Assembly: GCA_035649755.1 (NCBI GenBank)
Contig: DASRIY010000377.1
Coordinates: 1-61,573 of the forward strand
Origin: Candidatus Methylomirabilota bacterium
GTDB lineage: Bacteria > Methylomirabilota > Methylomirabilia > Rokubacteriales > CSP1-6
DNA length: 61,573 bases
Reading direction: 5' to 3'
Below the pieces are notes generated by a model that was not told the origin of the DNA, made no database searches, and saw only the letters and a program-made list of their open reading frames with translations. Below are positions 1-56,941 of the stretch, piece by piece; position 1 is the stretch's first letter; every line of letters starts with the position of its first letter. Position numbers and translations under genes: made by a program.

Positions 1-212
1 AGCGACGACTCGAGCAGTGCGCGCGCGCCCCAGGTGCCGGCCATGAGGGTCGCGCCGACGACGAGACCAACGCGCGCGATCCGCCAGACGAACAGGCCGA
101 TCTGCTTGCGCGTGCCCGGCCGCACGTCCGGGCGGCGGAAGCGCCGATCGGCCGGCGCCGCGACGCCTGATGCCGCCGGCGGCAAACCGCGACGCGCGGA
201 GGCGCGGCTCAT
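1..212 (-). CDS. Cell-division protein FtsQ/DivIB-like, N-terminal fragment (gene runs off the window)
   Basis: ATG at 212 overlaps the murC stop (ATGA at 209-212). Translation is MSRASARRGLPPAASG...RKQIGLFVWRIARVGLVVGATLMAG: a basic cytoplasmic tail followed by one TM helix, typical of the FtsQ N-terminus, in the expected dcw position. Not listed in the ORF track because it is truncated. Confidence 0.4.
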   Translation of the reverse strand, partial: MSRASARRGLPPAASGVAAPADRRFRRPDVRPGTRKQIGLFVWRIARVGLVVGATLMAGTWGARALLESS

Positions 213-1591
213 TTCCGCACCTCCTCGGCGCCGAGCGCCCGAAGAATCCGCTCGGGCAACGTGCCGATCGAGCCCGCGCCCAGCGTGACGACCACGTCGC
301 CCGGCCGCGAGAGCCGCCCAATGGCGGAAGCGGCCTGGTCGAAGTCGGCGACGACGTGCAGGCTCTTCACGTCGCGCCGCAACGCCGCGGCGAGCGTGTC
401 GAGAGTAACGCCGGGAATCGGCGGCTCCCCGGCGGCGTAGATGTCGAGCAGCACGACCTCGTCGGCGAGCGCCAGCGCCGGGCCGAACTCGTCGAGCAGG
501 TCACGCGTGCGGCTGAACCGGTGCGGTTGAAACACGGCGACGATCCGCGAGGGCCGGCCGTCGCGCGCCGCGTTGAGCACGGCGGCGATCTCGGTCGGAT
601 GGTGGCCGTAGTCGTCGACCACCGTCACGCCGCCGGCGCTCCCGAGAACCTGGAACCGGCGCTGGACGCCCGAGAACCCGGCCAGAGCCTTCTGGATGGC
701 GGCGAACGGAATTTCGAGGTCGAGCCCCACGCCCACCACCGCCAGCGCGTTGAGCACGTTGTGGCGACCGGGAATCCGGAGCGTCAGCTCGCCCAGCAGG
801 CTCAGACGGTGGAAGACCTCGAAGCGGCTCGTCATGCCCGTCAGGCGCACGCGCCGCGCCACGAGATCGGCGCCCGACTCGAGCCCGTACGTGACGATGC
901 GCTTCTCGATACGCGGGATCAGCCGCTGGATGTTCGGCTCGTCCAGGCAGAGCACGGCCGACCCGTAGAAGGGCACCCGGTTCACGAACGCAACGAACGC
1001 GTCGCGGATGGCGTCGAGGTTTCCGTAGTGATCGAGGTGCTCGGCGTCGATCGTCGTCACCACCGCGATGGTCGGCGCCAGCTTCAGGAACGAGCCGTCC
1101 GACTCGTCGGCCTCGGCGACCAGGAACTCGCCCTGGCCGAGCCGGGCGTTCGAGCCGAGGCTCGTCACCCGCCCGCCCACGACGATCGTCGGGTCGTAAC
1201 GACCCTCGGCGAGCACGGCGCCGACCATCGAGGTCGTCGTCGTCTTGCCGTGAGTGCCGGCGATCGCGATGCCGTACTTGAGCCGCATCAGCTCGGCCAG
1301 CATCTCGGCGCGCGGAATCGCCGGGATCTGCTGCTGGCGGGCGGCCTGGACCTCGACGTTCTCGCGCGAGACGGCCGACGAGTAGACCACGACGTGGGCG
1401 CCCTCGACGTTCGTCGCCGCGTGACCGATGAAGACCTTTGCGCCGAGCTCGGCCAGCCGCTCGACGGCGTCGTTCCGCTTCTGGTCGGAGCCGGTCACGC
1501 GATAGCCGAGGTTCAGGAGGATCTCGGCGATCCCGGACATGCCGCTGCCGCCGATCCCGACGAAGTGGATCTGCTGGTAGCGCTTAAACAT
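209..1591 (-). CDS. murC: UDP-N-acetylmuramate--L-alanine ligase
   Basis: N-terminus MFKRYQQIHFVGIGGSGMSGIAEILLNLGY and the Mur-ligase P-loop GTHGKTTTTSM; dcw cluster context. Confidence 0.95.
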   Translation of the reverse strand: MFKRYQQIHFVGIGGSGMSGIAEILLNLGYRVTGSDQKRNDAVERLAELGAKVFIGHAATNVEGAHVVVYSSAVSRENVEVQAARQQQIPAIPRAEMLAELMRLKYGIAIAGTHGKTTTTSMVGAVLAEGRYDPTIVVGGRVTSLGSNARLGQGEFLVAEADESDGSFLKLAPTIAVVTTIDAEHLDHYGNLDAIRDAFVAFVNRVPFYGSAVLCLDEPNIQRLIPRIEKRIVTYGLESGADLVARRVRLTGMTSRFEVFHRLSLLGELTLRIPGRHNVLNALAVVGVGLDLEIPFAAIQKALAGFSGVQRRFQVLGSAGGVTVVDDYGHHPTEIAAVLNAARDGRPSRIVAVFQPHRFSRTRDLLDEFGPALALADEVVLLDIYAAGEPPIPGVTLDTLAAALRRDVKSLHVVADFDQAASAIGRLSRPGDVVVTLGAGSIGTLPERILRALGAEEVRK

Positions 1592-2681
1592 GGGCGTGCT
1601 GGGAGATGTTCAGGAGCACTCCCGTCGAGAGCATCGTGACCAGCAAGGCCGAGCCGCCGAACGACAGGAAGGGCAAGGGCAGCCCCTTCGTCGGCAGGAG
1701 GCCCGTCACCACACCGAGGTTCATCACGACCTGGGTCGCGATCAGCACGGTGATCCCGAGCGCCAGGTAGCCGCCGAAGGCATCGGGCGCCCTGAGCCCG
1801 ATCCGGAGCCCGCGCCAGATCAGCACGACGAATAGCGCGATGATGGCCATGGCGCCCACGAAGCCCAGCTCCTCGCCGAAGATGGCGAAGATGAAGTCGG
1901 TGTGCGACTCCGGCAGGTAGAAGAGCTTCTGGCGCGAGGCGCCGATGCCCTGGCCGAAGAGCCCGCCGTTGCCGAGCGCCAGCCACGACTGGATGATCTG
2001 GAAGCCGCTGCCACGCGGGTCCGACCAGGGGTCGATGAACGCCACGATGCGCCGCAGCCGATAGGGCGCGGCCCAGATGGCAATCACGAGGGGCGGCAGC
2101 GCCGCGGCCAGGATGAAGCCCAGGTGGCGCGCGCGGCCGCCAGCCAGGAACAGGAGCGCGAACGTCAGCGTGATCAGCGTCAGGCAGTTGCCGAGGTCCG
2201 GCTGCGCGAGGACCAGCGCGGCCAGCAGGCCGGCGATTGCGAGCGGCGGCAAAAGGCCGCGGCGCAGGTCCGCGATCTCCTCGCCCTTCTTCGCGAGGAA
2301 GGCGGCCAGATAGAGCACGAGCGCGAGCTTCGCGAGCTCGGCGGGCTGGAACGACACGGGGCCCAGCCGGATCCAGCGGCGCGTGCCGTTGATCGCCTGG
2401 CCGAGCGGCGAGACCAGCACGAGCACCAGCAGGACGCCTGCGAAGATCAAGAGCGGGACCACGAACCCTTCCAGCCGGCGATAGTCGAGCCGGATCGCCA
2501 TCCACATGCAGCCGGCGCCCAGCAGCGCCCAGAAGACCTGCTTCTTGAGGAAGAAGTAGGGATCGTGAAAGCGATCGGTCGCGACGATCGCGCTGGCGGA
2601 GTAGACCATCACCACCCCCGCCGAGAGGAGCACGATCGCGACGCCGAACAGCCACACATCGGGCGCGAGCTTTCTGGGCAT
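1584..2681 (-). CDS. ftsW: Lipid II flippase / peptidoglycan glycosyltransferase of the SEDS family (FtsW)
   Basis: Polytopic membrane protein with SEDS signatures (FQPAELAKL, LPESHTDFIFA, PTKGLPLPFLSFGGSA). Its last 8 nt overlap the murC start. Confidence 0.9.
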   Translation of the reverse strand: MPRKLAPDVWLFGVAIVLLSAGVVMVYSASAIVATDRFHDPYFFLKKQVFWALLGAGCMWMAIRLDYRRLEGFVVPLLIFAGVLLVLVLVSPLGQAINGTRRWIRLGPVSFQPAELAKLALVLYLAAFLAKKGEEIADLRRGLLPPLAIAGLLAALVLAQPDLGNCLTLITLTFALLFLAGGRARHLGFILAAALPPLVIAIWAAPYRLRRIVAFIDPWSDPRGSGFQIIQSWLALGNGGLFGQGIGASRQKLFYLPESHTDFIFAIFGEELGFVGAMAIIALFVVLIWRGLRIGLRAPDAFGGYLALGITVLIATQVVMNLGVVTGLLPTKGLPLPFLSFGGSALLVTMLSTGVLLNISQHAHV

Positions 2682-4088
2682 TTAGTCGAGGCGCTCCACG
2701 AGTTTCTTGAAGACTTCCCCGCGGTGCTCGAAGTTGTCGAACATGTCGAAGGAGGCGCACGCCGGCGACAGCAGCACGACGTCGCCCGGCAGGGCGAGCG
2801 CGCGCGCCCGGTCGACGGCCTCCTGGAGCGTCCGGCACTGCGTCGCCGGAATCGTCGCGGCGGCGAGCGCGGCGCCGATCTTCGGCGCGTCCTCGCCGAT
2901 GAGGAGCGCGTGGGCCACGCGCCCGCGCGCGGCGTCGGCCAGGGGCTTCCATGCCTGGCCCTTGCCCTTGCCGCCCGCGATGAGCACGATCCGCTCCGAG
3001 AAGCTCTCGAGCGCCCGCAAGGTCGACGCCACGTTGGTGCCCTTCGAGTCGTTGTAGTACGGCACGCCCTTGACCTCGCGGACCCACTCGATCCGGTGCG
3101 CGACGCCCCGGAAGCGCGCGATGGCCGCGCGGATGGTCGCCGGCGCGAGGCCGGTCCAGAGCGCGCACGCCGTCGCGGCCAGGACGTTCTCGACGTTGTG
3201 CTGGCCGCGCAGGAAGATCTCCGACAGGGGACAGATCTCCTCCACGTGGCCGTTGAGCCGCGCGACGATCCAGCCCCCGCGCACGAAGACGCCGTGAGAC
3301 AGCTCGCGCTGCCGGCTGAACCACACGACCGGCGCCTGTGCCCGCGGGCCGAGGGCGCGAGTGGCCTCGTCGTCGGCGTTCAGCACGGCGCAGTCGGATG
3401 GCCCCTGGTTCGCAAAGATGCGGGCCTTCGCGTCGACGTAGGCGGCGAACGTTCCGTGCCGGTCGAGATGATCGGGCGTGATGTTGAGCACCACGGCGAC
3501 GCGCGGCTGGAAGGTCTCGGCGGCCTCGAGCTGGAAGCTCGACACCTCGCAGACGACGAGCCCGTCCGCCGGGAACGACAAGGCGTTCACGCAGAGCGGC
3601 GTCCCGATGTTGCCGGCGACCAGCACCGGTCGCGGCTGCTGCGCCAGCACGGCGCCGATCAGCGCGGTGGTGGTCGTCTTGCCGTTGGTCCCGGTGATCG
3701 CGGTCGTGTCCGCCTCCATCGCCCGCCAGCCGAGCTCGAGCTCGCCGATGATCGGCACCCGGCGCGCGCGAGCCGGCGCGAGCTGGGCGCCGTCGAGCGG
3801 CACACCCGGGCTCACCACGACCAGGTCGGCGCCGGCGAAGGCCGAGGCCACATCGTCGCCGCCGCCGATCAGACGCACACCCAGGTCGGCGAGGCCGGTC
3901 GCCTCGCGGCCGAGCCCGGCGACGGGCTTGGCGTCGAGCCCGGTGACGTCGGCGCCCGCGGTGCGCAAGAGCCGCGCCGCCGCGACCCCGCTCTTGGCGA
4001 GCCCGACCACGGTGACGCGCCGGCCGGCGAGCGAATTCAGATAGGCCTGGCCCCGGGTCACCGTCTCCACCTCCTCGAGCGAGCTCAT
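2682..4088 (-). CDS. murD: UDP-N-acetylmuramoylalanine--D-glutamate ligase
   Basis: Rossmann-like N-terminus VTVVGLAKSGVAAARLL and Mur-ligase P-loop GTNGKTTTTALIG; its stop directly abuts the ftsW ATG. Confidence 0.95.
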   Translation of the reverse strand: MSSLEEVETVTRGQAYLNSLAGRRVTVVGLAKSGVAAARLLRTAGADVTGLDAKPVAGLGREATGLADLGVRLIGGGDDVASAFAGADLVVVSPGVPLDGAQLAPARARRVPIIGELELGWRAMEADTTAITGTNGKTTTTALIGAVLAQQPRPVLVAGNIGTPLCVNALSFPADGLVVCEVSSFQLEAAETFQPRVAVVLNITPDHLDRHGTFAAYVDAKARIFANQGPSDCAVLNADDEATRALGPRAQAPVVWFSRQRELSHGVFVRGGWIVARLNGHVEEICPLSEIFLRGQHNVENVLAATACALWTGLAPATIRAAIARFRGVAHRIEWVREVKGVPYYNDSKGTNVASTLRALESFSERIVLIAGGKGKGQAWKPLADAARGRVAHALLIGEDAPKIGAALAAATIPATQCRTLQEAVDRARALALPGDVVLLSPACASFDMFDNFEHRGEVFKKLVERLD

Positions 4089-4095
4089 GCGCGCC

Positions 4096-5175
4096 TCATC
4101 GGAGCTTGAGGGTCGTGAGCGCCAGAAGGGCGAGGGCGAACGACACGATCCAGAAGCGGACGACGATCTTCGGCTCGGACCAGCCCGAGAGCTCGTAGTG
4201 ATGGTGTAACGGCGCCATCCTGAACACCCGGCGCCCGGTGAGCTTGAAGCTCGCGACCTGGATGATCACCGAGAGGGCCTCGACCACGTAGAGACCGCCG
4301 ATCAGCGGCAGCAGCAACTCGGCCTTCGTGAGCACCGCCAGCGTGCCGATCGCCCCGCCGAGGGCCAGCGAGCCCGCGTCGCCCATGAAGATCTCGGCCG
4401 GATGGCAGTTGAACCATAGAAACCCGATCGCCGCGCCGATCAGCGCCCCGCAGAAAACCGTCAGCTCGCCCGCGCCCCGCACGTTGAGGATCTTGAGATA
4501 GTCGGCGGCGCGGAAGTTGCCCGTGAGGTACGCGATCACCCCGAACGCGGCGCCCGCCATGATGACCGGACCGATCGCCAGCCCGTCGAGCCCGTCGGTC
4601 AGGTTCACCGCGTTCGAGGCCCCGACGATGACCAGCAGCGCGAACGGAATCCAGAGCCAGCCCAGGTTGAAGAGCCAGCCCTTGAAGAAGGGGATCGCCA
4701 GTACCGGGAGCCAGGCGCTGGGCGGCTGCCAGTAGACGAGCTGGAGCACGGCGAGGGCCACCACCACCTGCGCCCCGAACTTCACGCGGCTCGGAAGCCC
4801 CTTGCGGGTGCGCAGCTTGGTCATGTCGTCCCAGACGCCGATGAGCCCGAAGCCGGCGGTCGCCAGGATCACCACCCACACGTAGCGGTTCGAGAGATTC
4901 GCCCAGAGGAGCGTCGTGGCGAGGATGGCCATCAGGATGACGATCCCGCCCATCGTGGGCGTGCCCTTCTTGGTGCGATGCCGCTCGGGCGTGTCCTCGC
5001 GGATCGTCTCGCCGCCGTGTTGGGCCACCCGCAGGCGCCGGATCAGCCAGGGGCCGACCAGCAGCGAGATGATGAACGCCGAGATCAGCGCCATGAAGGA
5101 CCGGAACGTCAGGTAGCGAAAGACGTTGAAGATGATGTGGTCCTTCGCCAGCGGGACGAGGAGGTAATAGAGCAT
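4096..5175 (-). CDS. mraY: Phospho-N-acetylmuramoyl-pentapeptide transferase
   Basis: MLYYLLVPL... N-terminus, NAVNLTDGLDGLA motif and 10-TM profile typical of MraY. Confidence 0.95.
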   Translation of the reverse strand: MLYYLLVPLAKDHIIFNVFRYLTFRSFMALISAFIISLLVGPWLIRRLRVAQHGGETIREDTPERHRTKKGTPTMGGIVILMAILATTLLWANLSNRYVWVVILATAGFGLIGVWDDMTKLRTRKGLPSRVKFGAQVVVALAVLQLVYWQPPSAWLPVLAIPFFKGWLFNLGWLWIPFALLVIVGASNAVNLTDGLDGLAIGPVIMAGAAFGVIAYLTGNFRAADYLKILNVRGAGELTVFCGALIGAAIGFLWFNCHPAEIFMGDAGSLALGGAIGTLAVLTKAELLLPLIGGLYVVEALSVIIQVASFKLTGRRVFRMAPLHHHYELSGWSEPKIVVRFWIVSFALALLALTTLKLR

Positions 5176-5184
5176 CCGCCTCCC

Positions 5185-6576
5185 TCATCGGGCCAGGCGC
5201 GCCACCAGCGCGTCCACGACCCGCTCCATGCGCATGCCCCGCGAGCCCTTCACCAGCACGACGTCTCCGGGGGCCAATCCCTTGAGCAGGTGGGCTACGG
5301 TGTCCTCGAACGTGGTGGAATGGTGGGACGCCGTCATGCCCGCGGCGCGGGCGGCGTCGACCGCCAGCCGGGCCAGCCGCCCCACGCCGACGAACTCGTC
5401 GGCGCCGGCCGCCACCACCGCCCGGCCCATCTCCTGGTGCGCCCCCTCGGCGATCCCGCCGAGCTCCAACATATCTCCCAGGACTACCACGAGACGGCCC
5501 GACCGTGCTGCGGCCCGCCTGGCCGCCGCCGTCTCGAGCGCGGACCGGACCGACACGGGGTTGGCGTTGTACGTGTCGTCGAGAACCCGCACGCCGCCGG
5601 CGTCCCGCCAGATGCAGCGCCCCGCGACCGGCCGCGCCTCGGCGAGACCGCGGGCGATCTCGTCGAGCGACCACCCCAGGACCACGCCCACGCTCGCGGC
5701 AGCGAGGCCGTTCGTCACATTGTGACGCCCGGCGAAGGCCAGCTTCACCGGTACGCGCGTGCCGCCGCTCTCGATCGTGAAGGCGAGCGAGTCGCCGTCC
5801 TCCACGATGTCGCCGATCGCGCGCACGTCGGCGCCGGCCGCGCGGCCGTACGTGATGACGGGCGCCCGGCTGTCGCGCGCCATGCCCACCACGCGCGGAT
5901 CGTCGGCGTTGAGCACCGCGCGGCCGTCCGGCGCGAGGGCGCGCACCAGCGACGCCTTCTCGGCGCGCACGCCGTCGAGCGAGCCGAGGAACTCGGTGTG
6001 CGCGTGCGCGACCGTCGTGACGACTGCGATGGTGGGCCGCGCGAGCGCGGCCAGCGAGGCGATCTCGCCCGGATGCGAGCTGCCGAGCTCGAGAACGATC
6101 GCCTGGTGTTCGGGCGTGAGACGCAGGAGCGTCAGCGGAAGCCCCCACTGGTTATTGAAGCTGCCGCCGGGCTTCAGCACGTTCCAGCGCACGCCCAGCA
6201 CGCCTGCGATGAGCTCTTTGGTCGTGGTCTTACCATTGGAGCCGGTCACCGCGACGACCGGAATGGAGAACCGCGCGCGGTGGAACGCCGCCAGCATGCC
6301 GAGGGCCCGCGTGGTGTCCTCGACGAGGACGAGCGGTACGTTGGCCGGCACGTCGTCGTGGAGCGTGTCCACCACCAGGCACGCGGCGCCGCGCGACGCG
6401 GCCTCGGCGAGGAACGCGTGGCCGTCGAGCCGGTTACCGCGGATAGCGAAGAAGGCCTCGCCGACGCCGAGCGAGCGAGAGTCGACCGACACCCCGCTGA
6501 TGGGAACGCCGAGGTCGCCGGCGACCAGGGCGCCCTGGCTCGCGCGAACGATGTCCTGCACGGTGAATGGCGGCAC
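5185..6576 (-). CDS. murF: UDP-MurNAc-tripeptide--D-Ala-D-Ala ligase
   Basis: GSNGKTTTKELI P-loop and MurF-like N-terminus FTVQDIVRASQGAL. Start placed at GTG 6576, which has AGGAG 5 nt upstream. The longer track ORF (to 6960) is Arg-rich junk overlapping murE. Confidence 0.9.
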   Translation of the reverse strand: MPPFTVQDIVRASQGALVAGDLGVPISGVSVDSRSLGVGEAFFAIRGNRLDGHAFLAEAASRGAACLVVDTLHDDVPANVPLVLVEDTTRALGMLAAFHRARFSIPVVAVTGSNGKTTTKELIAGVLGVRWNVLKPGGSFNNQWGLPLTLLRLTPEHQAIVLELGSSHPGEIASLAALARPTIAVVTTVAHAHTEFLGSLDGVRAEKASLVRALAPDGRAVLNADDPRVVGMARDSRAPVITYGRAAGADVRAIGDIVEDGDSLAFTIESGGTRVPVKLAFAGRHNVTNGLAAASVGVVLGWSLDEIARGLAEARPVAGRCIWRDAGGVRVLDDTYNANPVSVRSALETAAARRAAARSGRLVVVLGDMLELGGIAEGAHQEMGRAVVAAGADEFVGVGRLARLAVDAARAAGMTASHHSTTFEDTVAHLLKGLAPGDVVLVKGSRGMRMERVVDALVARLAR

Positions 6577-6584
6577 GTGCGCTC

Positions 6585-8081
6585 CTAGCTCCTGGCCCTC
6601 GACAAGATCTCTCGCGCGACCTCGCGGTCGTCGAACGGCAGCACCTCGGCGCCGACGATCTGATAGGTCTCGTGACCCTTCCCGGCGATGACGACCGTGT
6701 CGCCGGCCTCGGCCCACCCGAGCGCCCCGCGGATCGCCGCGCCCCGGTCGGCCTCGGCCACGTAGCGGCTCGCCGCCGCGCCGGTCCGGCGGATGCCGGC
6801 CACCACCTCGTCGATGATCGCCTCCGGGCGCTCGGAGCGCGGATTGTCGGAGGTCACCCACACGCGGTCGCCGAGCCGCGCGGCGATCTCGCCCATGATC
6901 GGCCGCTTGGTCCGGTCGCGATCGCCGCCGCAGCCGAAGACGACGCCGAGCCGGCCGCACGTGAGCTTGCGCGCGGTCGTCAGGACTCGCTCGAGGGCAT
7001 CGGGCGTGTGCGCGTAGTCGACGACCACCAGGAACGGCTGGCCGGTCCGCACCTGCTCGAAGCGGCCCGGCACCGTGCCGACCGCCGCGAGAGCCTCGGC
7101 GATGGCGGGCGGCTCGAGTCCCAGCGCGAGCCCGGTCGCCACGGCCCCGAGCAGGTTCATCACGTTGTGCTCACCGATGAGCGGCGACGTGAGCCCCACG
7201 CGCCCGCGCGGCGTCTCGACCGTCATCCGGATCCCGTCGATCGACGAGACGTGCTCGACGGCCCGCACCCGCGCCGCCGGCCCGAGGCCGAAGGGCAGGA
7301 CGGCCACGTCGAGCCCTTGCGCCATGGTCGCGCCGGCTGGATCGTCGGCGTTCACGACCGCTGTGCGAACGGGCTTGGGCGATTCGGCCAGGAGCTCGAA
7401 CAGCCGGCGCTTGGCGAGCCGGTAGTTCTCGAGCGTGCGGTGAAAGTCGAGGTGATCCTGCGTGAGGTTCGTGAACACCGCCACGTCGAACGCGAGGCCG
7501 TCGGCGCGGGCCAGCGAGAGCGCGTGCGACGAGACTTCCATGGCGACCCCGCGCACGCCGCCGTCGCGCATCTGCGCGAGCATCGACTGGAGATCCAGGG
7601 CCTCGGGCGTCGTCTGGCTGGCCGGCCGCGTCTCGTTGCCGAGCACGTACTGGATGGTGCCGATCACGCCGGTGGCGAGGCCTCGCGCGCGCAGCAGGGC
7701 CTCGACCAGATAGGACGTCGTCGTCTTGCCGTTGGTGCCGGTGATGCCGACGAGCGTGAGCTGGCGTGAGGGGTGGGCGTAGAACGCGCCCGCGAGCCGC
7801 GCGAGCGACACGCGGACCGACGGCACCAGCACCTGGGCCACCGACAGCCCGGCGACCGGCTCGCCCTCTGTCACGACGACCGTCGCGCCCCGCCGCACCG
7901 CTTCAGGGATGAAGCGCCGCCCATCCTGCTTGAATCCGGGGACCGCGACGAAACAGCCGCCCGGCTCGACACGGCGCGAGTCGCCGGAGATGGACGAGAC
8001 GGATCGCGGCAGGTCGCCGAGAACTCGCTTCTCGGGAAGCGCCGCGAGCAATTCGCTCATGGCCGTGCCCTGCCCTGCCAT
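6585..8081 (-). CDS. murE: UDP-MurNAc-L-Ala-D-Glu--2,6-diaminopimelate ligase
   Basis: GTNGKTTTSYLV P-loop and a DNPRSE motif near the C-terminus (meso-DAP-type MurE signature). Start is ambiguous: ATG 8081 (GAGGTG upstream, 1 nt after the ftsI stop) or ATG 8060. Confidence 0.9.
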   Translation of the reverse strand: MAGQGTAMSELLAALPEKRVLGDLPRSVSSISGDSRRVEPGGCFVAVPGFKQDGRRFIPEAVRRGATVVVTEGEPVAGLSVAQVLVPSVRVSLARLAGAFYAHPSRQLTLVGITGTNGKTTTSYLVEALLRARGLATGVIGTIQYVLGNETRPASQTTPEALDLQSMLAQMRDGGVRGVAMEVSSHALSLARADGLAFDVAVFTNLTQDHLDFHRTLENYRLAKRRLFELLAESPKPVRTAVVNADDPAGATMAQGLDVAVLPFGLGPAARVRAVEHVSSIDGIRMTVETPRGRVGLTSPLIGEHNVMNLLGAVATGLALGLEPPAIAEALAAVGTVPGRFEQVRTGQPFLVVVDYAHTPDALERVLTTARKLTCGRLGVVFGCGGDRDRTKRPIMGEIAARLGDRVWVTSDNPRSERPEAIIDEVVAGIRRTGAAASRYVAEADRGAAIRGALGWAEAGDTVVIAGKGHETYQIVGAEVLPFDDREVAREILSRARS

Positions 8082-8082
8082 C

Positions 8083-10122
8083 TCACCGCTCACCTCGATT
8101 ACACGATGCCTCGGCGCGGGCGCTCTCGCCATGCCGATCGGCGCGTCGGGCCTCGCACGGCGAGCCGGCCCCGGCCAGCGGCGCCAAAGTCAGGTGGGCG
8201 ACGGCGCCCGGCTCGACGGGCTCCCCGGCCGCCGGACTCTGCCGGACGATGCGTCCCTGCCCCGCCAGCCGGACCTCGACCCCGAGAGGCTCGAGGGCTC
8301 CGAGCGCCTGGCGCAACGTCTTGCCGTTGAGGTCCGGCATGCGCTTCGTGCCGTCGGCATCCGCCGGCTCCGCCGCCGTGCTCACCAGCCTCACGCGGGC
8401 GGCGACCATCTCGGGACCGGTCACGAACTGCAAGGGCTGGGCGTCGCGCGGCGCCACCTCGAGATAGCGCAGGATCTCGCGCCCGATCGCATTGAAGACG
8501 GGCGCGGCCGCCTCGCTGCCCCATTTTTCGTTCTTGGGCTCGTCGAGCATGACGAGCATGGTGAAGCGGGGATCATCGGCCGGCGCGAAGCCCACGAACG
8601 ACAGCACGCCCGGCGCGCGCGAGTAGCGTCCGGTCGCCGGATCGAGCTTCTGCGCCGTGCCGGTCTTGCCTCCCACCGCGTATCCAGGGATCGCCGCGAA
8701 GTGCCCGGTGCCCGACTCCACGACCCGCACCAACAGGCCCGTGAGAGTCCGCGCGGTCTCCGGCGAGATGACCTGGCGCACGGCCCGGGGCTCGAACCGG
8801 CGCGCCTCGCGCCCATCCGGGGCGATCGTGGAGCGCACCAGACGGGGCTGCATCAGCGTGCCGTCGTTGGCGATGGCGCCGAAGGCCGCGACGAGCTGGA
8901 GCGCCGTGACCGAGATCTCCTGGCCGATCGACATCGTCGGCAGCGACAGGAGCGACCAGCGCTGCGGATCGCGCAGCAACCCGCGGCTCTCGCCGGCCAG
9001 CCCCACGCCGGTCGTCGTCCCGAAGCCGAAGGCCTTCATGTAGCGGTGATAGCGCTCGCGGCCGAGCGAGAGCCCCACCTTGATCGAGCCGACGTTCGAC
9101 GAGTTCTGGAGCACCTCGGCGAACGTGAGCCAGCCGTACTTTTTCCAGTCGTGGATCGTCGCGCCGGCGAGGGTGATCGCGCCGTTCTCGCCGTAGATAC
9201 GGTCGTCGGGCTTGACGACGCCTTCCTCGAGCGCCGCGGCCGCCATGATCGCCTTGAAGGTCGAGCCGGGCTCGAAGGGATCGGTCACGGCGCGGTTACG
9301 CCAGTAGTCGGAGGACGGCACGTCGAGGAACGTGTTCGGGTTGAACGTCGGGCGGATCGCCATCGCGAGGATGTCGCCCGTGCGCGGCTCGAGCACGACT
9401 GCCATCGCGGCCTTGGCGTGGGTCCGCCGGTAGGCGGCGTCGATCTCGCGCTCGGCGATGTACTGGATCGCGCTGTCGATCGTCAGCGCCACGCCGTGCC
9501 CGGGCTTGGGCACCTGGAGCAAGTGCGGGGCGGCCACCTCGCGGCCGAGCGCGTCCCGTCCGGCGATCGCCTTGCCGGGCACCCCGGCCAGCTCCGTGTT
9601 GAACGCCCGCTCGACGCCTTCGAGACCACCCTCGGCGCCCTCGAAGCCGACGACGTGCGCGGCCAGCTCGCGGTTCGGATAGAGCCGGAGGGACTCCGGC
9701 AGGAAGCCGAGCCCGGGCTCGCGAAGGGCCCTCACCTGGTCCGCCATCGTGGGCGGGAGCTTGCGGCGCAGCCACACGAAGGGCCGGGCGCTCGTCAAGG
9801 CGGCGTGCACCTCCCGCTCGGGCTGGCCGAGGATGGGCGCCAGGCGGGCGGCGACGCGCACCGGATCGCCGACGCTCCTGGGCTGGACGAACAGCGACTC
9901 GGTCGCGGTCGAGGTGGCGAGCGGGGCGCCGCGGCGATCGAGGATGGGTCCGCGCAGGGCCGGAAGCACGACCGTGCGGGAGTACTGGCGCTCGGCGAGC
10001 GCCGTCAGCTCTCCGTGCTTCACGATCATCAGCCAGCCAAGCCGAGCCGTGAGGCCGCCGAACGCGAGGGCGAGGACCGCCGCCAGCAGCAGCACCCGCG
10101 TGCGGACGGCCGCGTCCCTCAC
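8083..10122 (-). CDS. ftsI: Division-specific class B penicillin-binding protein (FtsI/PBP3-like) with a C-terminal PASTA domain
   Basis: TM anchor (VLLLAAVLALAFGGL), dimerisation domain, transpeptidase motifs STFK, SSN and KTGT, then a PASTA-like tail (MPDLNGKTLRQALGALEPLGVEVRLAGQGRIVRQSP). GTG start at 10122 overlaps the ftsL stop (GTGA). Confidence 0.9.
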   Translation of the reverse strand: MRDAAVRTRVLLLAAVLALAFGGLTARLGWLMIVKHGELTALAERQYSRTVVLPALRGPILDRRGAPLATSTATESLFVQPRSVGDPVRVAARLAPILGQPEREVHAALTSARPFVWLRRKLPPTMADQVRALREPGLGFLPESLRLYPNRELAAHVVGFEGAEGGLEGVERAFNTELAGVPGKAIAGRDALGREVAAPHLLQVPKPGHGVALTIDSAIQYIAEREIDAAYRRTHAKAAMAVVLEPRTGDILAMAIRPTFNPNTFLDVPSSDYWRNRAVTDPFEPGSTFKAIMAAAALEEGVVKPDDRIYGENGAITLAGATIHDWKKYGWLTFAEVLQNSSNVGSIKVGLSLGRERYHRYMKAFGFGTTTGVGLAGESRGLLRDPQRWSLLSLPTMSIGQEISVTALQLVAAFGAIANDGTLMQPRLVRSTIAPDGREARRFEPRAVRQVISPETARTLTGLLVRVVESGTGHFAAIPGYAVGGKTGTAQKLDPATGRYSRAPGVLSFVGFAPADDPRFTMLVMLDEPKNEKWGSEAAAPVFNAIGREILRYLEVAPRDAQPLQFVTGPEMVAARVRLVSTAAEPADADGTKRMPDLNGKTLRQALGALEPLGVEVRLAGQGRIVRQSPAAGEPVEPGAVAHLTLAPLAGAGSPCEARRADRHGESARAEASCNRGER

Positions 10123-10505
10123 TGGGCGGGCGGCCTCGTCACCGGCAGCGAGGCAGCGCGACGGCCGGCCGCGGCCAGGCCCGTCCCGCCGGCCACGTAC
10201 TCCTTCGCCAGGCGGATCTGATCGCGCGCGGCCACCACCAGGCCGATCTGACGCGCCTTGGCCTCGATGCGACTGGGCGACCGGAGCGTGGCCACTTCGA
10301 TCTCGAGCTGGCGGATCCGGTCCTGCGCGCGCGCGCGCTCGCTCCGGAGCGCGTCGAGCCGATACGCCAGATGAACCTGCTCGAGGCGCACGCCGACGAC
10401 GGTGAGGGCGGCGGCCGCCAGCAGCGCCGCGGTGGCCAGGGCCACCACCAGAGAGCGGCGCACACGCCGGTCGGGTTCGCGATGAAGCCGCTGGTCCTTC
10501 TTCAT
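10119..10505 (-). CDS. ftsL: Cell-division protein FtsL-like
   Basis: 128 aa: short basic N-terminus, one TM helix, then a coiled coil (LRSERARAQDRIRQLEIEVATLRSPSRIE). Sits between rsmH and ftsI; ATGA overlap with the rsmH stop. Confidence 0.7.
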   Translation of the reverse strand: MKKDQRLHREPDRRVRRSLVVALATAALLAAAALTVVGVRLEQVHLAYRLDALRSERARAQDRIRQLEIEVATLRSPSRIEAKARQIGLVVAARDQIRLAKEYVAGGTGLAAAGRRAASLPVTRPPAQ

Positions 10506-11467
10506 GAGAGGCGCTCCAGCACGCGCAGCTTCGCGCTCCTGGCGCGAGGGTTGTCTCGCACCTCGTCGTCCGCGGGCTGTCGGGGCGACGGCTCAAGCTC
10601 GGCGAATCCCGCCGGCTCAAGAGCTCGGAACGTTTGCTTCACGATGCGATCTTCGCCCGAATGAAACGCGATGACTCCCAACCGACCACCGGCCGCCAGG
10701 AGCTGGGGCGCCTGAGCCAGGGCCTGGCGGAGAGCCCCGGGCTCGTCGTTGACCGCCATCCGGATGGCCTGGAACGTCTTCGTGGCGACGTGCAGGCGCC
10801 GCGGCCAGGCCGCGCGAGGCACCGCGGCGCGCACCGCCGCGACGAGGTCGCCCGTCCGCTGGAGCGGACGCCGGCGAACGATCACCCGCGCGATCCGGCG
10901 CGCGTGGGGCTCCTCGCCGTATTCGAAGATGAGCCGCGCCAGCTCGGTCTCGGGGAGCCGGTTCAGCAGGACGGCAGCCGGCTCGCCGACCGAGGGGTCC
11001 AGGCGCATGTCGAGGGGCTCATCACCCTGGAACGAGAAGCCCCGGCCGGACTCCTCGAGCTGCCAGGACGACACGCCGAGGTCCAGGAGAATCGAGCGGG
11101 CGCTGTCGATGCCCTCGGCCGCGGCGGCCTCTCGAAGGTCGCGGAAGCTCGAGTGCCCCAGGCGCACCCGATCGCCGAACGGCGCCAAGCGGGCGCGGGC
11201 CCGCGCGAGGGCCTCGCGGTCGACGTCCAGGCCGAGCAGGCGTACCGAGGGCGCGCTGAGGCTCAGGATCGCCTCCGCATGACCGCCCATTCCCACTGTC
11301 CCATCGATCACCCATCCCTCGCCGCGCGGCCGCAGAAGAAACGCGACCTCGTCGACGAGCACCGGAACGTGAACCGTTACACTCCCAGGCTCGACAGCCC
11401 CTCGAACAGCGACGGGAGCTTCTCCTGCCCCGTCCGCTCGTACTCCTCGAACCGGGCGCGGTCCCAC
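10502..11467 (-). CDS. rsmH: 16S rRNA (cytosine1402-N4)-methyltransferase
   Basis: HVPVLVDEV...IDGTVGMGGHAEAIL...DLGVSSWQLE...SGEDRIVK motifs. 5' end uncertain: the nearest upstream in-frame canonical start before the conserved HVPVL is GTG 11467, which overlaps mraZ by 91 nt. GTG 11362 would remove the conserved His. Confidence 0.85.
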   Translation of the reverse strand: MGPRPVRGVRADGAGEAPVAVRGAVEPGSVTVHVPVLVDEVAFLLRPRGEGWVIDGTVGMGGHAEAILSLSAPSVRLLGLDVDREALARARARLAPFGDRVRLGHSSFRDLREAAAAEGIDSARSILLDLGVSSWQLEESGRGFSFQGDEPLDMRLDPSVGEPAAVLLNRLPETELARLIFEYGEEPHARRIARVIVRRRPLQRTGDLVAAVRAAVPRAAWPRRLHVATKTFQAIRMAVNDEPGALRQALAQAPQLLAAGGRLGVIAFHSGEDRIVKQTFRALEPAGFAELEPSPRQPADDEVRDNPRARSAKLRVLERLS

Positions 11468-11820
11468 ACCTCGAATCGCGCCAGCCCGCCGCCCACGAGC
11501 GTGACTTCCTTCCTGGCAAGCCCGGCCTGCTCTCGCGTATCCGGAGGGATCAGGATCCGCCCCGCGGCGTCCAGCGCGACGTCCTTCGCCCGCGAGATGT
11601 AGAGCCGGCTCAGCGCCTGCACGTCGGCGCGGAAGACCGACTGCTCGCGCACCCTCGCCTCGATGCGCTGCCACTCCTCGAGCGGGTGGACCTCGAGGCA
11701 GTGCTCGTTGGGGACGACGACCAGGGCGCCGTCGAACTGGGCGAGGGCGTCCCGGAACTTGGCCGGCACGCTCAGGCGCCCCTTCGGGTCGATCGTGTGC
11801 TGATAGCGCCCCCTAAACAT
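11377..11820 (-). CDS. mraZ: Transcriptional regulator MraZ
   Basis: MFRGRYQHTIDPKGRLSVPAKFR N-terminus; 147 aa with two SpoVT/AbrB-like repeats; first gene of the dcw cluster. Confidence 0.95.
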   Translation of the reverse strand: MFRGRYQHTIDPKGRLSVPAKFRDALAQFDGALVVVPNEHCLEVHPLEEWQRIEARVREQSVFRADVQALSRLYISRAKDVALDAAGRILIPPDTREQAGLARKEVTLVGGGLARFEVWDRARFEEYERTGQEKLPSLFEGLSSLGV

Positions 11821-12157: not shown

Positions 12158-12682
12158 TCAGCGATTGCGCAGACGCACACGCGTCGAGAAGACCGTCACC
12201 GGCGCCCGCGGCACGTCGAAGACACTCTCGGTCACAAGCGTGATGACGACACTGCGAACCTCGTGCGGTGTCGTGACGGGCCGGTCGAGCGCGTCGAGAT
12301 ACTCGAGCGCGAAGCTTCGCACGCCGTCGATGATCGGCTGGGCGCCGCCGCCCGCGTCGCGGCGCAGCGTCTTGCCGGCGAGATGCCACGTGATGGTCTC
12401 GCCGGCGCCGGTGACGACACCGTCTCCGTCGAGATCCGAGTGCAGAACGACGCGCGTCGGCTCGGCGAGGGAGATCGCCGCGAACGTCGCGGGGTGCCGG
12501 CCGAGCCCGGCGGCTCTGATCTCGCCGGCGAGACGCTCGAGCGCGACGCGCCCACTCTGCTGCGACTCGGCGCGCGAGGCGCCGATCGTGTAGCCCTGGA
12601 GCCCTTCCTGGAGCACGGTGAGCACGGCGGCCGAGACGACACCGAAGACCGCCGCGGCGACGAGCAGATCGGCGAGATGCAT
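12158..12682 (-). CDS. Minor pilin / pseudopilin-like protein (PilW/GspJ-like) with a degenerate N-terminus
   Basis: N-terminal hydrophobic segment MHLADLLVAAAVFGVVSAAVL resembles the (G)FTLxELLVA prepilin helix but has no leader peptide. The body (RVALERLAGEIRAAG ... LHSDLDGDG ... ITWHLAGKTLRR ... GVRSFALEYLD) looks like PilW/GspJ. Confidence 0.45.
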   Translation of the reverse strand: MHLADLLVAAAVFGVVSAAVLTVLQEGLQGYTIGASRAESQQSGRVALERLAGEIRAAGLGRHPATFAAISLAEPTRVVLHSDLDGDGVVTGAGETITWHLAGKTLRRDAGGGAQPIIDGVRSFALEYLDALDRPVTTPHEVRSVVITLVTESVFDVPRAPVTVFSTRVRLRNR

Positions 12683-12757: not shown

Positions 12758-12994
12758 CTACGGCAGGCGCACCACCGTCCAGCCGCGAACCTCGATCTCG
12801 CTGTCTTCCGCCGGACGGCCGCGACGACCGAAGCGCCGGCGCTCCATCGCCGGCGGCGCCTCGTGCCGGCGGCGGCGCTTCACGACGCGCCGGTCGAGGA
12901 TCACCTCGACGTTGCGCTCTTGTCCCAGCAGCACGCGCAGCGAGTCGTAGAGCTCTCGACGCCCTTGCGACACGATGAACAGGAGCCGCTCCAC
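12758..12994 (-). CDS. Small Arg-rich protein, copy 1 of a 4-member family (hIVSR...VEVIxDRR...ERR...GW)
   Basis: GTG 12994 is preceded by GGGAGG with a 4-nt spacer and lies 12 nt after the amidase stop. Sequence VERLLFIVSQGRRELYDSLRVLLGQERNVEVILDRRVVKRRRRHEAPPAMERRRFGRRGRPAEDSEIEVRGWTVVRLP aligns with the ORFs at 25895, 47348 and 56942. Confidence 0.6.
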   Translation of the reverse strand: MERLLFIVSQGRRELYDSLRVLLGQERNVEVILDRRVVKRRRRHEAPPAMERRRFGRRGRPAEDSEIEVRGWTVVRLP

Positions 12995-13005
12995 GGTTCC
13001 TCCCG

Positions 13006-14418
13006 TCAGTCCAGCGTCGGACGATGTTGGGCCCACGGCCGGGCGCGCTCGAAGGCCGCGGAGGCCCTGAGCACTGTGACGTCATCGAAGCGACGGCCGA
13101 CGATCTGCAAACCGATCGGCAGTCCGTCCTTCGTGAAGCCGCACGGCACCGACGCGGCCGGCTGGCCCGTCATGTTGAACGGGTATGTGAACGGAATCCA
13201 GGCGTATGGCTCGACCAGCTTGCCGGCGATCTCCGTCGGGTTATCGAGCCCCACCGGAAACGGCGGGCACGCGATCGTCGGCGTCAGCAGCAGATCGTAC
13301 GTCTCGAAGAGTGTCTTCGGGTGCGACCACCACGCGAGCCGATCGAACCACGCCTGCACGTACTTCGTCGGCGGGTTCTTGAGCGTCTGCTCGATCAGCC
13401 GGTAGAGCCCGGGCTCGATGTCGCCGCGGCGGTCGAGGTACGGCGCCATGCGCGTCGCGATGCCGCCGCAGAAGAGCTCGCCCCACGCCTCGCGCGGCGA
13501 GGGCCAGCGGGGCGACACCTCCTCGAGGCGGCAGCCGAGCTCACGGAAGGCGCGCGACGCCTTCGCGCACGCCGCGCGCACCTCCGGGTCCACTGCGTCG
13601 GCGAACCCGAGATCGTCGGCGTACGCGACGCGCAGCCCTTTGAGGCTCCCGCGCAGCGCCTTCACGTAATCCACGGGCGGGCCGGGCAGCGAGTACTGAT
13701 CGCGCTCGTCGGGGCCGGCGCACACCGTCATCATCAGCGCGGCATCCGCCACCGTTCGGGTGAGCGGGCCAATGTGCGAGAGGCTCCACGCGCCGCTCGT
13801 CGGGTACGTCGGGATGCGCCCGTAGGACGGCTTGTGGCCGAAGATCCCGGTGCACGAGGCCGGGATGCGGATCGAGCCGCCGCCGTCGGTGCCGATGTGG
13901 AGCGGCCCCAGGCCCGCCGCCGCGGCCGCCGACGCGCCGCCGCTGGAGCCGCCCGGCGTGCGCTCGAGGTTCCAGGGATTGCGCGTGATCCCGAAGACCA
14001 GGTTGTGAGTCGCGCCGATCCAGCCGAAGGTCGGTGTGTTGGTCTTGCCGAGCATGATGGCGCCGGCCGCCTTCATGCGCTCGACCATCGGCGCGTCCTC
14101 GGTGGGAACGTTGTCGCGGTAGAACGGCGTGCCGAAGGTCGTCCGCACGCCGCGGGTGATGACGAGGTCCTTCACCGAGAACGGAACACCGTGGAGCGGC
14201 CCGAGCCGCGCGCTGCGCCGCGTGAGCGCGCGCTCGGCGGCCTTCGCCTCGCGCCGCGCTTGCTCGTTGGTCAGCGTCACGAAGGCGTTCAGCTTTGGAT
14301 TGACGTCCTCGATGCGCGCCAGCACCGCGCCGATCACGTCCACCGGCGAGACCTTCTTCTTCCGGATCAGCCCGGCCAGCTCGGTCGCGGACAGCCAGGC
14401 GAGTCGCGTGTCAGGCAT
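13006..14418 (-). CDS. Amidase (amidase-signature family, GatA-like)
   Basis: [15 protein letters not shown] signature and conserved Ser-cisSer-Lys region; 470 aa. Confidence 0.9.
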
Positions 14419-21067: not shown

Positions 21068-21490
21068 ATGAGCCGCGCCATCAGCATCACCAGCACCGTG
21101 CGTGTGCCCGATTCGGCGATCCAGGTTCGGGCCGTGCGCGCCTCCGGCCCGGGCGGGCAGAACGTGAACAAGGTCGCGACCAAGGTCGACCTGCGCGTCG
21201 ATCTCGACGCCGTCGAGGGTCTGTCGGCGGCCGCGCGGGCGCGGCTCCTGGCGCTCTGTCGTCACCGGCTCGACGCCGACGGCCGCCTGATGGTCTCGAG
21301 CCAGGTGACGCGCAATCAGGCGCGCAATCTCGAGGACGCGCGCGAGCGCGTGCGGGCGCTCGTCACGGCGGCCTTGCGCGAGCCCAGGACGCGCACGCCG
21401 TCCGCGCCTTCAGCGGGCGCGCGGGAACGGAGAATCGAGGCGAAGAAGCGCCGCGCCGCGCTCAAGCGCGACCGCCGGACGCTCGACTAG
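21068..21490 (+). CDS. arfB: Alternative ribosome-rescue factor ArfB (peptidyl-tRNA hydrolase, GGQ domain)
   Basis: SGPGGQNVNKVATKVDLR GGQ motif plus a basic C-terminal tail (KKRRAALKRDRR); 140 aa. Confidence 0.9.
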   Translation: MSRAISITSTVRVPDSAIQVRAVRASGPGGQNVNKVATKVDLRVDLDAVEGLSAAARARLLALCRHRLDADGRLMVSSQVTRNQARNLEDARERVRALVTAALREPRTRTPSAPSAGARERRIEAKKRRAALKRDRRTLD

Positions 21491-25332: not shown

Positions 25333-25815
25333 TCAGGGCGTCGGACTCGACGCCGCCCAGAGGCCGCGGCCGGCGGCGCGCGCCTCGCGCTGCAGCTTCA
25401 CGAAGAGAGCCTGGTGCCGGACGTTCGGCGGCACGGTCATGACCTGCGCATAGCCGAGGCGCACGAGCTCGGCGTTCACCATCAGATCGCCGACCCAGAC
25501 GTACGCCAGAAGCCGCCCGTACTGGTCCCGCGCTCGCACGTCCAGCTCGAGCCGCACGTGTCGGCCGCCCACGAGGCGCCGGTTCAGCGCGGTCGCCTCG
25601 CGACCTCCCGGCTCTTCACCCCAGAACGGGTGATGGATCTCGGGCGCATCGATGCCGATGTAGCGAACCTTCTCGACACGCGCGCCGCACTGAACGTGAA
25701 TGGTGTCGCCGTCGACCACGTGTGTGGCGGCGCAGTGGTCCGTCTGCGCCGGCGCCGCCGACGCCAGGACGAGCAAGAGAAGGAGGAGCGGGAGCCACCA
25801 GCGGCGAGGCACCAC
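25333..25815 (-). CDS. Secreted thermonuclease (staphylococcal nuclease/SNase family)
   Basis: Signal peptide WWLPLLLLLLVLASAAPA; VVDGDTIHV...VRYIGIDAPE...GREA motifs of SNase. Confidence 0.85.
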   Translation of the reverse strand: MVPRRWWLPLLLLLLVLASAAPAQTDHCAATHVVDGDTIHVQCGARVEKVRYIGIDAPEIHHPFWGEEPGGREATALNRRLVGGRHVRLELDVRARDQYGRLLAYVWVGDLMVNAELVRLGYAQVMTVPPNVRHQALFVKLQREARAAGRGLWAASSPTP

Positions 25816-25894: not shown

Positions 25895-26155
25895 CTACTC
25901 GACGCGGAACATCGCGTAGCCGAGCGACCGGAGCTGCGTGTCGACGAAGGGCTGATGACGCCGCTCGGCGCCACGCCGCTCGACCTCGCTCTGACCGTTC
26001 GCTACGCGGCGATCACGACCCGATCGGCGATCCAGGAACACCTCGACATTTTCCTCGGCCGCGAACTGCCGCTCCAGGTATTCGCACAGGCTTGCCTGGT
26101 CGCGCGCGACGATGAAATAGTGCCGAGTGATGACCGCCACACGACTATATTCCAC
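25895..26155 (-). CDS. Small Arg-rich protein, copy 2 of the family
   Basis: ...HYFIVARDQASLCEYLERQFAAEENVEVFLDRRSGRDRRVANGQSEVERRGAERR...LRSLGYAMFRVE. Lies 15 nt downstream of the NYN gene stop. Start uncertain (GTG 26155 or GTG 26140). Confidence 0.55.
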   Translation of the reverse strand: MEYSRVAVITRHYFIVARDQASLCEYLERQFAAEENVEVFLDRRSGRDRRVANGQSEVERRGAERRHQPFVDTQLRSLGYAMFRVE

Positions 26156-29110: not shown

Positions 29111-29148
29111 GCAGGCCTCCTGATCGGGCGCCAGCGGCGTCGACGGGT

Positions 29149-29310: not shown

Positions 29311-29312
29311 CC

Positions 29313-56700: not shown

Positions 56701-56941
56701 GGGTTCGCCCTCCGGGTGCGGTTGGACCGCGTGAAAGGTCTGGTCGTCGATGCTAAGCGATCCGGGATTCGAAGGAAAGTGCGCTTGGGGGGTGTACAAA
56801 CTACAATCCGGGGAGTAAGTTCTACTCGGCTCCCCGTGCGGCGGCCCGGTCTAGTCGGGATACGTCGCCGCGCCGCGGTCCTGCGCGGCGGGCCTCGTAA
56901 TCAGGGGTTGGCATTCGCGTTGCTGCAGAAGGAGCACCGTC

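Follow-up and report, generated by a model that had tools for sequence, protein, structure and literature searches.

Does a small arginine-rich open reading frame (ORF) that recurs four times in GC-rich DNA represent a genuine protein family and, if so, what might such proteins do? The question is raised by a 61,573-nucleotide (nt) stretch of a Candidatus Methylomirabilota genome (assembly GCA_035649755.1, contig DASRIY010000377.1), here called the window, in which a first-pass annotation had noticed four ORFs with a common pattern and had proposed for them a small nucleic-acid-binding or regulatory module. The Methylomirabilota (Rokubacteria and NC10) are abundant in soil and groundwater, have large genomes and are almost all uncultured; to our knowledge, their signalling is essentially unknown. 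Our main finding is that the four ORFs belong to an unannotated family with a conserved Arg loop. We propose, tentatively and with somewhat less than even confidence, that this loop binds cyclic dimeric guanosine monophosphate (c-di-GMP) or a related guanine nucleotide, and that family members serve as small adaptor modules. The four copies are designated c1 to c4; fetched loci or contigs carry L numbers and family proteins P numbers.

12758-12994, minus strand: c1, 78 amino acids (aa), GTG start (NCBI HZN52564.1, VFD81_18125)
25895-26140, minus strand: c2, 81 aa, GTG start, a canonical member (HZN52575.1, VFD81_18180)
47348-47641, plus strand: c3, 97 aa, with a 21-aa C-terminal tail (HZN52597.1, VFD81_18290)
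56942-58312, plus strand: c4, 456 aa, with a degenerate family domain at its N terminus (residues ~4-77, 56951-57172)

One domain of about 76 aa is common to all four ORFs, which lie where the first-pass annotation had placed them, except that the start of c2 is revised: its ORF, given as 25895-26155(-), stands, the GTG at 26140 being the better start by the evidence of orthologues and of the NCBI record. A longer ORF of c1 extends to 13036, the start in orthologues and in the NCBI record being at MERLL. The aligned cores show pairwise identities of 31-34%. Invariant in the four copies are the I-V of strand 1, the L of helix 1, the V-x-x-D-R-R closing strand 2, and a later R-R, D and G. The regular expression first written for the pattern proved approximate: c1 has L..SL, not L..[YF]L, c3 has AEVTVIV, and c4 is degenerate. 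When all 825 six-frame segments of the window were searched with a hidden Markov model (HMM) of the four copies, c1 to c4 alone matched (E 1e-28 to 1e-40), the next best segment being at 0.04. Because this test is circular, leave-one-out HMMs were built, and these found the omitted copy at E-values of 4.9e-11 (c1), 2.5e-18 (c2), 8.4e-16 (c3) and 6.4e-5 (c4), with the best noise at 0.02-0.08. Recovery of the copies is far beyond chance in DNA of 69.7% GC.

At this GC content many non-coding frames of the window are Arg-rich, and the copies might be spurious ORFs encoding Arg-rich peptides by chance. The ratio of non-synonymous to synonymous substitution (dN/dS) speaks otherwise: in frame it is 0.15-0.24 for c1 (against L001-L003) and 0.18 for c3 (against L005-L007), that is, purifying selection, versus the corresponding pN/pS of 1.3-3.8 in shifted frames of the same orthologue alignments. 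A coding signal and relatives outside the source genome, the two things whose lack was to betray an artefact of composition, are thus both present, the latter massively, with thousands of homologues that share conserved hydrophobic core positions. Moreover, every copy was recovered by its leave-one-out HMM, the scaffold is predicted with confidence by AlphaFold2 (AF2), and gene calls at NCBI and at JGI independently include family genes, all as "hypothetical protein". By dN/dS, family size and leave-one-out recovery we consider a compositional artefact ruled out, its probability being negligible.

How large is the family, and where does it occur? At E <=1e-3, 2,381 representatives of 50%-identity clusters matched the four-copy profile (589 at <=1e-10; median length 93 aa), and a profile of 40 diverse domains matched 2,520 clusters in a 90%-identity collection. 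Wherever a profile match comes with an organism name, it belongs to NC10, Methylomirabilota, Candidatus Rokubacteria or Rokuibacteriota. When one genome per GTDB species was scanned for the pattern, 26 loci were confirmed; these lie in metagenome-assembled genomes (MAGs) of the same groups, apart from some labelled no more precisely than "uncultured bacterium" and one in a MAG labelled Candidatus Binatia. This last (L031, DASPZZ010000359.1) carries a divergent pair of canonical and degenerate genes typical of Rokubacteria, and reflects either mis-binning or lateral transfer beyond the phylum. In viral contigs, none of 47 pattern matches was confirmed as a family copy.

That no named domain could be recognised in the copies held throughout our searches of Pfam, NCBIfam, PDB sequences and Foldseek. 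Pfam-A 2025 gave no match for the four copies, no member had a precomputed match, and a scan of 131 individual members gave no consistent match even at E up to 10. Nor did NCBIfam 20.0 give a family match; the best hit of a profile search of PDB sequences (E 1.3) was a chance beta-alpha-beta match to SEFIR, and the best of Foldseek against PDB with the two AF2 models (c1 and c2) was KaiB (E 0.19-0.53, root mean square deviation ~10 Å). Literature on Rokubacteria or Methylomirabilis combined with arginine-rich, c-di-GMP or diguanylate cyclase yielded nothing relevant. As far as these searches reach, the family is unannotated and undescribed.

What, then, is conserved? The consensus of 151 domains reads M-x-R-h-L-F-I-V-[AS]-R-D-x-P-D-L-Y-[ED]-Y-L-x-R-x-F-A-x-E-x-x-V-E-V-I-L-D-R-R-x-G-E-R-R-(variable)-E-R-R-x-x-D-R-R-x-R-P-x-V-D-x-x-L-R-x-L-G-[WFY]-A-[IV]-V. 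AF2, run on alignments of 117-131 sequences, predicted one topology for c1 and c2, b1-a1-b2, a loop, then a2-b3 (b1 3-8, a1 ~10-23, b2 29-33, loop 34-60, a2 61-69, b3 72-77), and so bears out the beta-alpha-beta-like ends suspected earlier, as alpha/beta ends around a disordered Arg loop. In both models the AF2 confidence score (predicted local distance difference test, pLDDT) is ~90 for the scaffold and below 50 at the loop centre, which is therefore predicted to be disordered; c2 has in addition a short helix at residues 54-58, directly after R52-R53. In the window, the loop of c1 is encoded as follows.

12815-12895, minus strand: codons of the c1 Arg loop (residues 34-60), disordered according to AF2, with pLDDT <50 at residues 42-51 and 53-55

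The loop, ~27 residues between b2 and a2, is the conserved core: DRR-x-G-ERR, 8 variable residues, then ERR-xx-DRR-x-RP. Arg conservation is 93-100% across all four RR pairs, and in most sequences each pair is preceded by an acidic residue (D 98% for the first; E/D 69%, plus Q 12%, for the second; E/D 93% and D/E 89% for the third and fourth). The expression [DE]RR-x6-16-[DE]RRxx[DE] is carried by 114 of 149 representatives, and the variable stretch is exactly 8 residues long in 88 of the 109 that have all four RR pairs. Only one non-family protein matched [DE]RR...[DE]RRxx[DE] among 433 background genes from the same genomes, called by a crude method based on GC content at third codon positions that missed c2 and c4 and served for background statistics only. 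That protein is ArfB-like, with an RF-1 domain (140 aa, 21068-21490(+) in the window), and the match lies in its basic C-terminal tail.

The four copies differ in how closely they follow this core. The loop of c2, from the most conserved subfamily, is canonical (DRR-SGRDRR-x8-ERRGAERR-HQP). That of c1 is divergent (DRR-VVKRRRR-x7-ERRRFGRRGRP), its first half being basic and its last acid replaced by Gly, and keeps RRxxxR; c3 (DRR-LGERR-x8-DRRSASRR) is without the last acid, and c4 (DRRRGEPSS...NDRRKRP) has lost two of the four RR pairs. The RGRP of c1 recalls an AT-hook, which we ruled out: the Gly is not conserved in the family (RRxRP).

The closest parallels to such a loop are found among receptors of c-di-GMP. 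The peptide of Caulobacter CleD, 19-36 residues long, is unstructured when free and folds around an intercalated c-di-GMP dimer with a dissociation constant of 19-177 nM (PMC7382256). Its linear motif is DRR-x11-[R/K]RxxD; alanine substitution of D154, R155, R156, R168, R169 or D172 causes in each case a loss of at least 8-fold, up to total, and Y163A and G165A cost the peptide 25-fold and 43-fold in affinity (PMC7382256). The Cle consensus has [YF]xGP[DE][RK]R in tandem, with a conserved Arg at its flank and a conserved Asp after it (PMC5677366). Acid-Arg units of this kind are typical of proteins that read guanine bases, such as CleD and the RxxD of the GGDEF inhibitory site (PMC7382256).

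With these proteins the family shares a linear motif that is predicted to be disordered when free, attached to a small alpha/beta signalling domain and present in many paralogues per genome. Its G-E-R-R-[R/Q]-x7-[E/D]-R-R-x-x-[D/E] contains, as in CleD, tandem acid-RR units of which the second is followed by xx[D/E], and the helix predicted at residues 54-58 of c2 echoes the RxxD helical turn of CleD. HMMER places CleD DRRRFNSADykGPRRRKA on positions 39-54 of the family profile, CleD having two inserted residues; since the score is only 3 bits, the likeness is one of motif and no evidence of homology. Several features set the family apart from Cle: its loop is internal (b2-a2) and not a C-terminal tail; it has four RR pairs, two of them flanking the motif; its range is the Methylomirabilota, Cle proteins being mostly alphaproteobacterial; and in the three representatives with a receiver (REC) domain, REC is C-terminal to the family domain, not N-terminal. 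The scaffold is no receiver-domain remnant either: hhalign against a 5-sequence REC alignment gave a probability of 1.4%, and there was no Response_reg match in 131 members.

A second parallel is PilZ (PF07238), whose "c-di-GMP switch" motif is RRxxxR. The family ERRxxDRR satisfies RRxxxR, likewise in a flexible loop, with R at 93-99% at these positions. Like stand-alone PilZ adaptors, family members are small, multi-copy and dispersed, either single-domain or fused to REC, and the genes of the two are repeatedly adjacent. Unlike PilZ, the family is without [D/N]xSxxG and is predicted to be alpha/beta (3 strands, 2 helices), not a six-stranded beta-barrel; no PilZ HMM match was found in 131 family members even at E up to 10. 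The C-terminal domain of BldD reads the guanine bases of oligomeric c-di-GMP with a bipartite Arg/Asp motif, RXD-X8-RXXD. The family resembles BldD and the GGDEF inhibitory site in having bipartite Arg/acid motifs ~8 residues apart, and differs from them in fold, in context and in the order D-R-R versus R-x-D.

Do the neighbouring genes point the same way? A common operon partner was sought and rejected, as contexts are heterogeneous (amidase/dcw, NYN/SNase, cyclase-PilZ, a surE-pcm-nlpD-sigma cluster, sugar metabolism); the only recurring neighbours of family genes are PilZ genes and other family members. PilZ was detected with an HMM from 6 bona fide sequences, a regular expression having given mostly false positives in non-coding frames. 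Of 57 family clusters (70% identity), 5 have PilZ at a distance of up to 1 kb from family genes, and c3 in the window adds a sixth case; the six subfamilies are all different. The PilZ gene and the start of the family gene overlap by 13 nt in L017 and L051, a PilZ-REC protein is the neighbour in L097, and in an NC10 contig 25 nt separate the end of a family domain from the start of a stand-alone PilZ domain, the genes being ~4 nt apart. In this last case we considered a "split PilZ", with the family RRxxxR acting in trans, and rejected it: both ERRRHPR and D-x-G-x-x-G are present in the NC10 neighbour itself. In L042 a small family gene and a family-REC fusion are followed by an MshEN-T2SSE ATPase, MshEN being a further domain that binds c-di-GMP. 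Overall, PilZ is ~5-fold denser close to family genes (11 per 271 kb up to a distance of 1 kb) than more than 3 kb away (3 per 394 kb), and we regard these neighbourhoods as independent support for a c-di-GMP reading.

Most family members are single-domain proteins of 75-100 aa. Others are tandem two- or three-domain proteins (P0121-P0125, P0124, P0128, P0134), carry a C-terminal REC domain (P0138, P0188, P0215; Pfam E 1e-12 to 5e-27) or have coiled-coil tails. In the c4 type (c4 has the orthologue P0152) the family domain is followed by a hydrophobic stretch (~183-207 in c4), a Ser/Thr/Pro-rich linker and a C-terminal domain without Pfam match; the stretch looks like a single transmembrane segment, and the domain after it would be extracytoplasmic. 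The family HMM found 184 domains in the 122 fetched loci and the window (929 kb), with more than one domain in 46 of these 123 sequences. Arrays include tandem triplets, five family copies within 4.6 kb, and a conserved pair of divergently oriented copies, one canonical and the other degenerate (LLDRRILPPGA...ERRDIYDEL). Because arrays combine motif-bearing with motif-less copies and tandem fusions occur naturally, the scaffold may work as a homo- or hetero-dimer. One further module, LGLxxLRLPExGxLxxxWxxFL, lies between both family domains of tandem proteins (P0121-P0125 and the middle region of P0165), and a close variant is found at the C terminus of a PilZ protein (L017:3234-3950(-)), a hint that this module accepts either PilZ or the family domain as its partner.

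The best-supported mechanism would be a variant of the known linear Arg-rich c-di-GMP site. A guanine-nucleotide second messenger, with c-di-GMP the likeliest, would bind to the Arg loop as a linear site. As in the Arg-rich region of CleD, the loop would be unfolded when free and would fold around an intercalated c-di-GMP dimer, its Arg side chains stacking on the guanines and reading their Hoogsteen edges and the preceding Asp or Glu reading the Watson-Crick edges. Binding would alter the contacts made with partners by the variable surface of the scaffold, probably a homo- or hetero-dimer, and through the many paralogues a single signal would reach a variety of operons; c4, the ILPPGA partners of divergent pairs and other degenerate copies would be non-binding partners or membrane-tethered variants. 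The acid before each RR, the motif match to CleD and PilZ and the PilZ neighbours together make a second-messenger receptor fit better than a generic binder of phosphate backbones. REC fusions, the putatively membrane-tethered c4, tandem fusions and mixed arrays fit a signalling adaptor, and the "regulatory module" of the first-pass annotation is plausible.

Several observations weigh against this proposal. The dominant spacing between units is 11 residues in the family (16 when counted from its first DRR) and 13 in CleD, and the family is without the stacking Tyr and the Gly-Pro of Cle, the Gly before the second unit alone being conserved (70%). The focal copy c1 is atypical: like c3, it is without the acidic residue of RRxxD, and c4 is without two RR pairs. 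The PilZ enrichment was computed on redundant, family-centred loci, and ~90% of subfamilies are without any c-di-GMP-related neighbour, in contexts that are otherwise heterogeneous. Finally, a regular expression for GG[DE]EF found none in ORF segments of at least 150 aa from the 123 family-centred sequences, and the EAL matches around family genes were all short strings in other proteins; the same 123 sequences hold at least 10 PilZ genes and one MshEN gene. Because no GGDEF motif was seen, we infer c-di-GMP use by these organisms only from canonical PilZ and MshEN domains.

A more far-reaching version of the proposal, which we regard as rather unlikely, is that of a phylum-specific, massively expanded class of minimal c-di-GMP receptors or natural "sponges", in which a Cle/PilZ-like motif has been duplicated to four [D/E]RR on a new 76-residue alpha/beta scaffold. 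Canonical and degenerate paralogues, which occur in arrays and as fusions, would then hetero-dimerise and capture c-di-GMP dimers or tetramers, and local pools of second messenger would be tied to dozens of operons unrelated to each other (dcw, nucleases, type IV pilus ATPases, cyclases).

Could the loop instead bind nucleic acid? On this reading, which we think unlikely, it would grip an RNA hairpin or a DNA groove while the scaffold dimerises, and the proteins would be transcription factors, antiterminators or small RNA chaperones. The Arg content of the 28-residue loop, 21-43%, covers a wider range than the ~25-30% first estimated for the linker, and Arg-rich loops also bind RNA and DNA, a point that tells against c-di-GMP. 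The arginine-rich RNA-binding motifs of lambda/P22 N and of HIV Rev and Tat are RR/RRR clusters with Glu, disordered when free, and the N-type RRxERR resembles the family loop, in which RR clusters are likewise interspersed with Glu and disorder is predicted. Unlike the family, these are isolated terminal peptides, helical or hairpin, without strict acid-RR units or fixed spacing. An acid before every RR is, moreover, unusual for phosphate-backbone binders and typical of guanine-base readers (PMC7382256), and neither Pfam nor Foldseek gave a helix-turn-helix, ribbon-helix-helix, KH, RRM or similar fold.

The surroundings of c2 also favour nucleic acid over c-di-GMP: it stands between two genes for nuclease-like products.

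26171-26755, minus strand: NYN_YacP (RNase-like) gene, directly upstream of c2
25333-25815, minus strand: SNase (staphylococcal-nuclease-like) gene, downstream of c2

The adjacency of c2 and SNase is also kept in a more distant c2-like locus (L041). The SNase itself looks secreted, its hydrophobic Leu-rich N terminus being a putative signal peptide. A further point for nucleic-acid binding comes from the divergent canonical/degenerate pairs, whose intergenic region (L026:7740-8030; equivalents in L027, L028, L030, L031, L035 and L036) contains two conserved non-coding blocks, GTGGCAGGTCAtTTTTTCC and GAGCATTTGCgaTGCCATTC, as is usual for autoregulated regulators; the GTGGCAGGTCAtTTTTTCC block may be a regulator binding site. 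REC fusions and the ToxR-like membrane-tethered form of c4 would suit an output domain. Most members, on the other hand, lie away from genes of RNA or DNA metabolism, and nucleic-acid binding would leave the recurrent PilZ and MshEN neighbours unexplained, which binding of c-di-GMP would not.

Signals upstream of family genes bear on another alternative. The minus strand of GAGCATTTGCgaTGCCATTC is a sigma-54-like element, and a further match precedes c4.

56909-56924, plus strand: sigma-54-like promoter match TGGCATTCGCGTTGCT, 17 nt upstream of the start of c4; no other match in the window has <=1 mismatch

Within 300 nt upstream of family genes, matches to TGGCAC-N5-TTGCW (GG and GC fixed, up to 2 mismatches) occur at 0.99/kb, versus 0.09/kb overall and 0.20/kb in non-called sequence. 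This enrichment is inflated by orthologous redundancy and amounts to ~4 independent cases with <=1 mismatch; matches lie upstream of family genes in L013, L015, L022, L025, L026-L036 and L034, and of c4 in the window.

Such promoters, together with REC, PilZ-REC and FecR neighbours, speak of signalling circuits, and might suit a protein connector or a binder of some other anion. The loop would then contact an acidic partner (a sigma factor, RNA polymerase, the ribosome, PilZ or REC), or bind (p)ppGpp, polyphosphate, a phospholipid head group or another cyclic dinucleotide, and not c-di-GMP. The arrays and fusions suggest hetero-oligomers, the layout of c4 is anti-sigma-like (N-terminal cytoplasmic domain, putative membrane segment, extracytoplasmic domain), and no GGDEF gene was seen near family genes. 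We nevertheless judge this slightly less likely still than nucleic-acid binding: four near-invariant [D/E]RR and a fixed 8-residue spacer are maintained over ~2,400 divergent clusters, and a loop so nearly invariant argues for one common small ligand rather than many partners; besides, no partner family other than PilZ recurs.

Whatever the ligand, an unannotated family of at least 2,400 sequence clusters with several copies per genome is a sizeable blind spot. If c-di-GMP binding holds true, the family would be a new receptor class on a new scaffold, the second natural "linear" c-di-GMP motif after that of the alphaproteobacterial Cle proteins, and a natural counterpart of engineered c-di-GMP-sequestering peptides. 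What is novel with respect to Cle would be the scaffold, the phylum, the duplicated motif and an unusual organisation in arrays and hetero-pairs, c-di-GMP being the putative ligand. Were the ligand RNA or DNA, the family would still be a new class of small regulators that marks a whole phylum.

The locus of c1, in which these questions began, has a conserved organisation of its own.

13006-14418, minus strand: amidase gene (PF01425), directly upstream of c1
12999-13004, minus strand: GGGAGG, Shine-Dalgarno sequence of c1, in the 11-nt spacer C GGGAGG AACC
12158-12682, minus strand: ORF of 174 aa without Pfam match, with a pilin-like hydrophobic N terminus, downstream of c1
209-11674, minus strand: dcw (cell-division/cell-wall) cluster, at the left end of the window

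The description of c1 as starting 12 nt after the amidase stop with its own GGGAGG was essentially right (TGA 13008-13006, 11-nt spacer, GTG at 12994). Its further description as translationally linked to an amidase/ABC operon is to be qualified: adjacency to the amidase is kept in the orthologous contigs L001-L003, and stop and start do not overlap. ABC-transporter genes are present in the window and in L002 and absent in L001, so that it is the amidase, and not the transporter, with which c1 is linked. The two may plausibly be co-transcribed; neither a sigma-70-like promoter nor an intrinsic terminator was detected around c1. Gene order in the orthologous contigs is amidase, a gap of 8-11 nt, c1, a gap of ~45-95 nt, the pilin-like ORF, mraZ, rsmH and the dcw cluster.

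The pilin-like ORF (175-200 aa) is kept between c1 and mraZ in these contigs (L002:8283-8885, L001:8333-8860). Its N terminus, HLADLLVA.A.FG.VSA, is like that of pilins and pseudopilins and has a GspJ/PilW-like flavour; no recognisable prepilin cleavage motif was found in it. In the dcw cluster of the window only RsmH/MraW is confirmed by Pfam, and the mur, ftsW, mraY-type order was taken from the orthologous contigs. The RsmH model matches the 390-aa ORF at 10502-11674(-) from residue 101 onward only, so the true start is probably further downstream. For mraZ, a position at about 11.7-12.1 kb of the window is expected.

The neighbour of c3 is an unusual three-part protein, in which a canonical PilZ domain is joined to a CHASE2 sensor and an adenylate/guanylate cyclase of class III.

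45118-47256, minus strand: CHASE2/class III cyclase/PilZ protein, divergent from c3, with synteny conserved in L005-L007
45139-45435, minus strand: PilZ domain of this protein, with canonical RKHQR and DISEGG motifs

This architecture implies cross-talk of cyclic nucleoside monophosphate synthesis with c-di-GMP sensing. Lastly, a cluster that resembles those for ribosomally synthesised and post-translationally modified peptides adjoins the c2 operon in the orthologous contig L004 (1481-6188). It is made up of ScmC-like, PqqD, radical SAM/SPASM and NTP_transf_5 genes together with a 53-aa ORF; in the window, NTP_transf_5 is found at 27968-29431.

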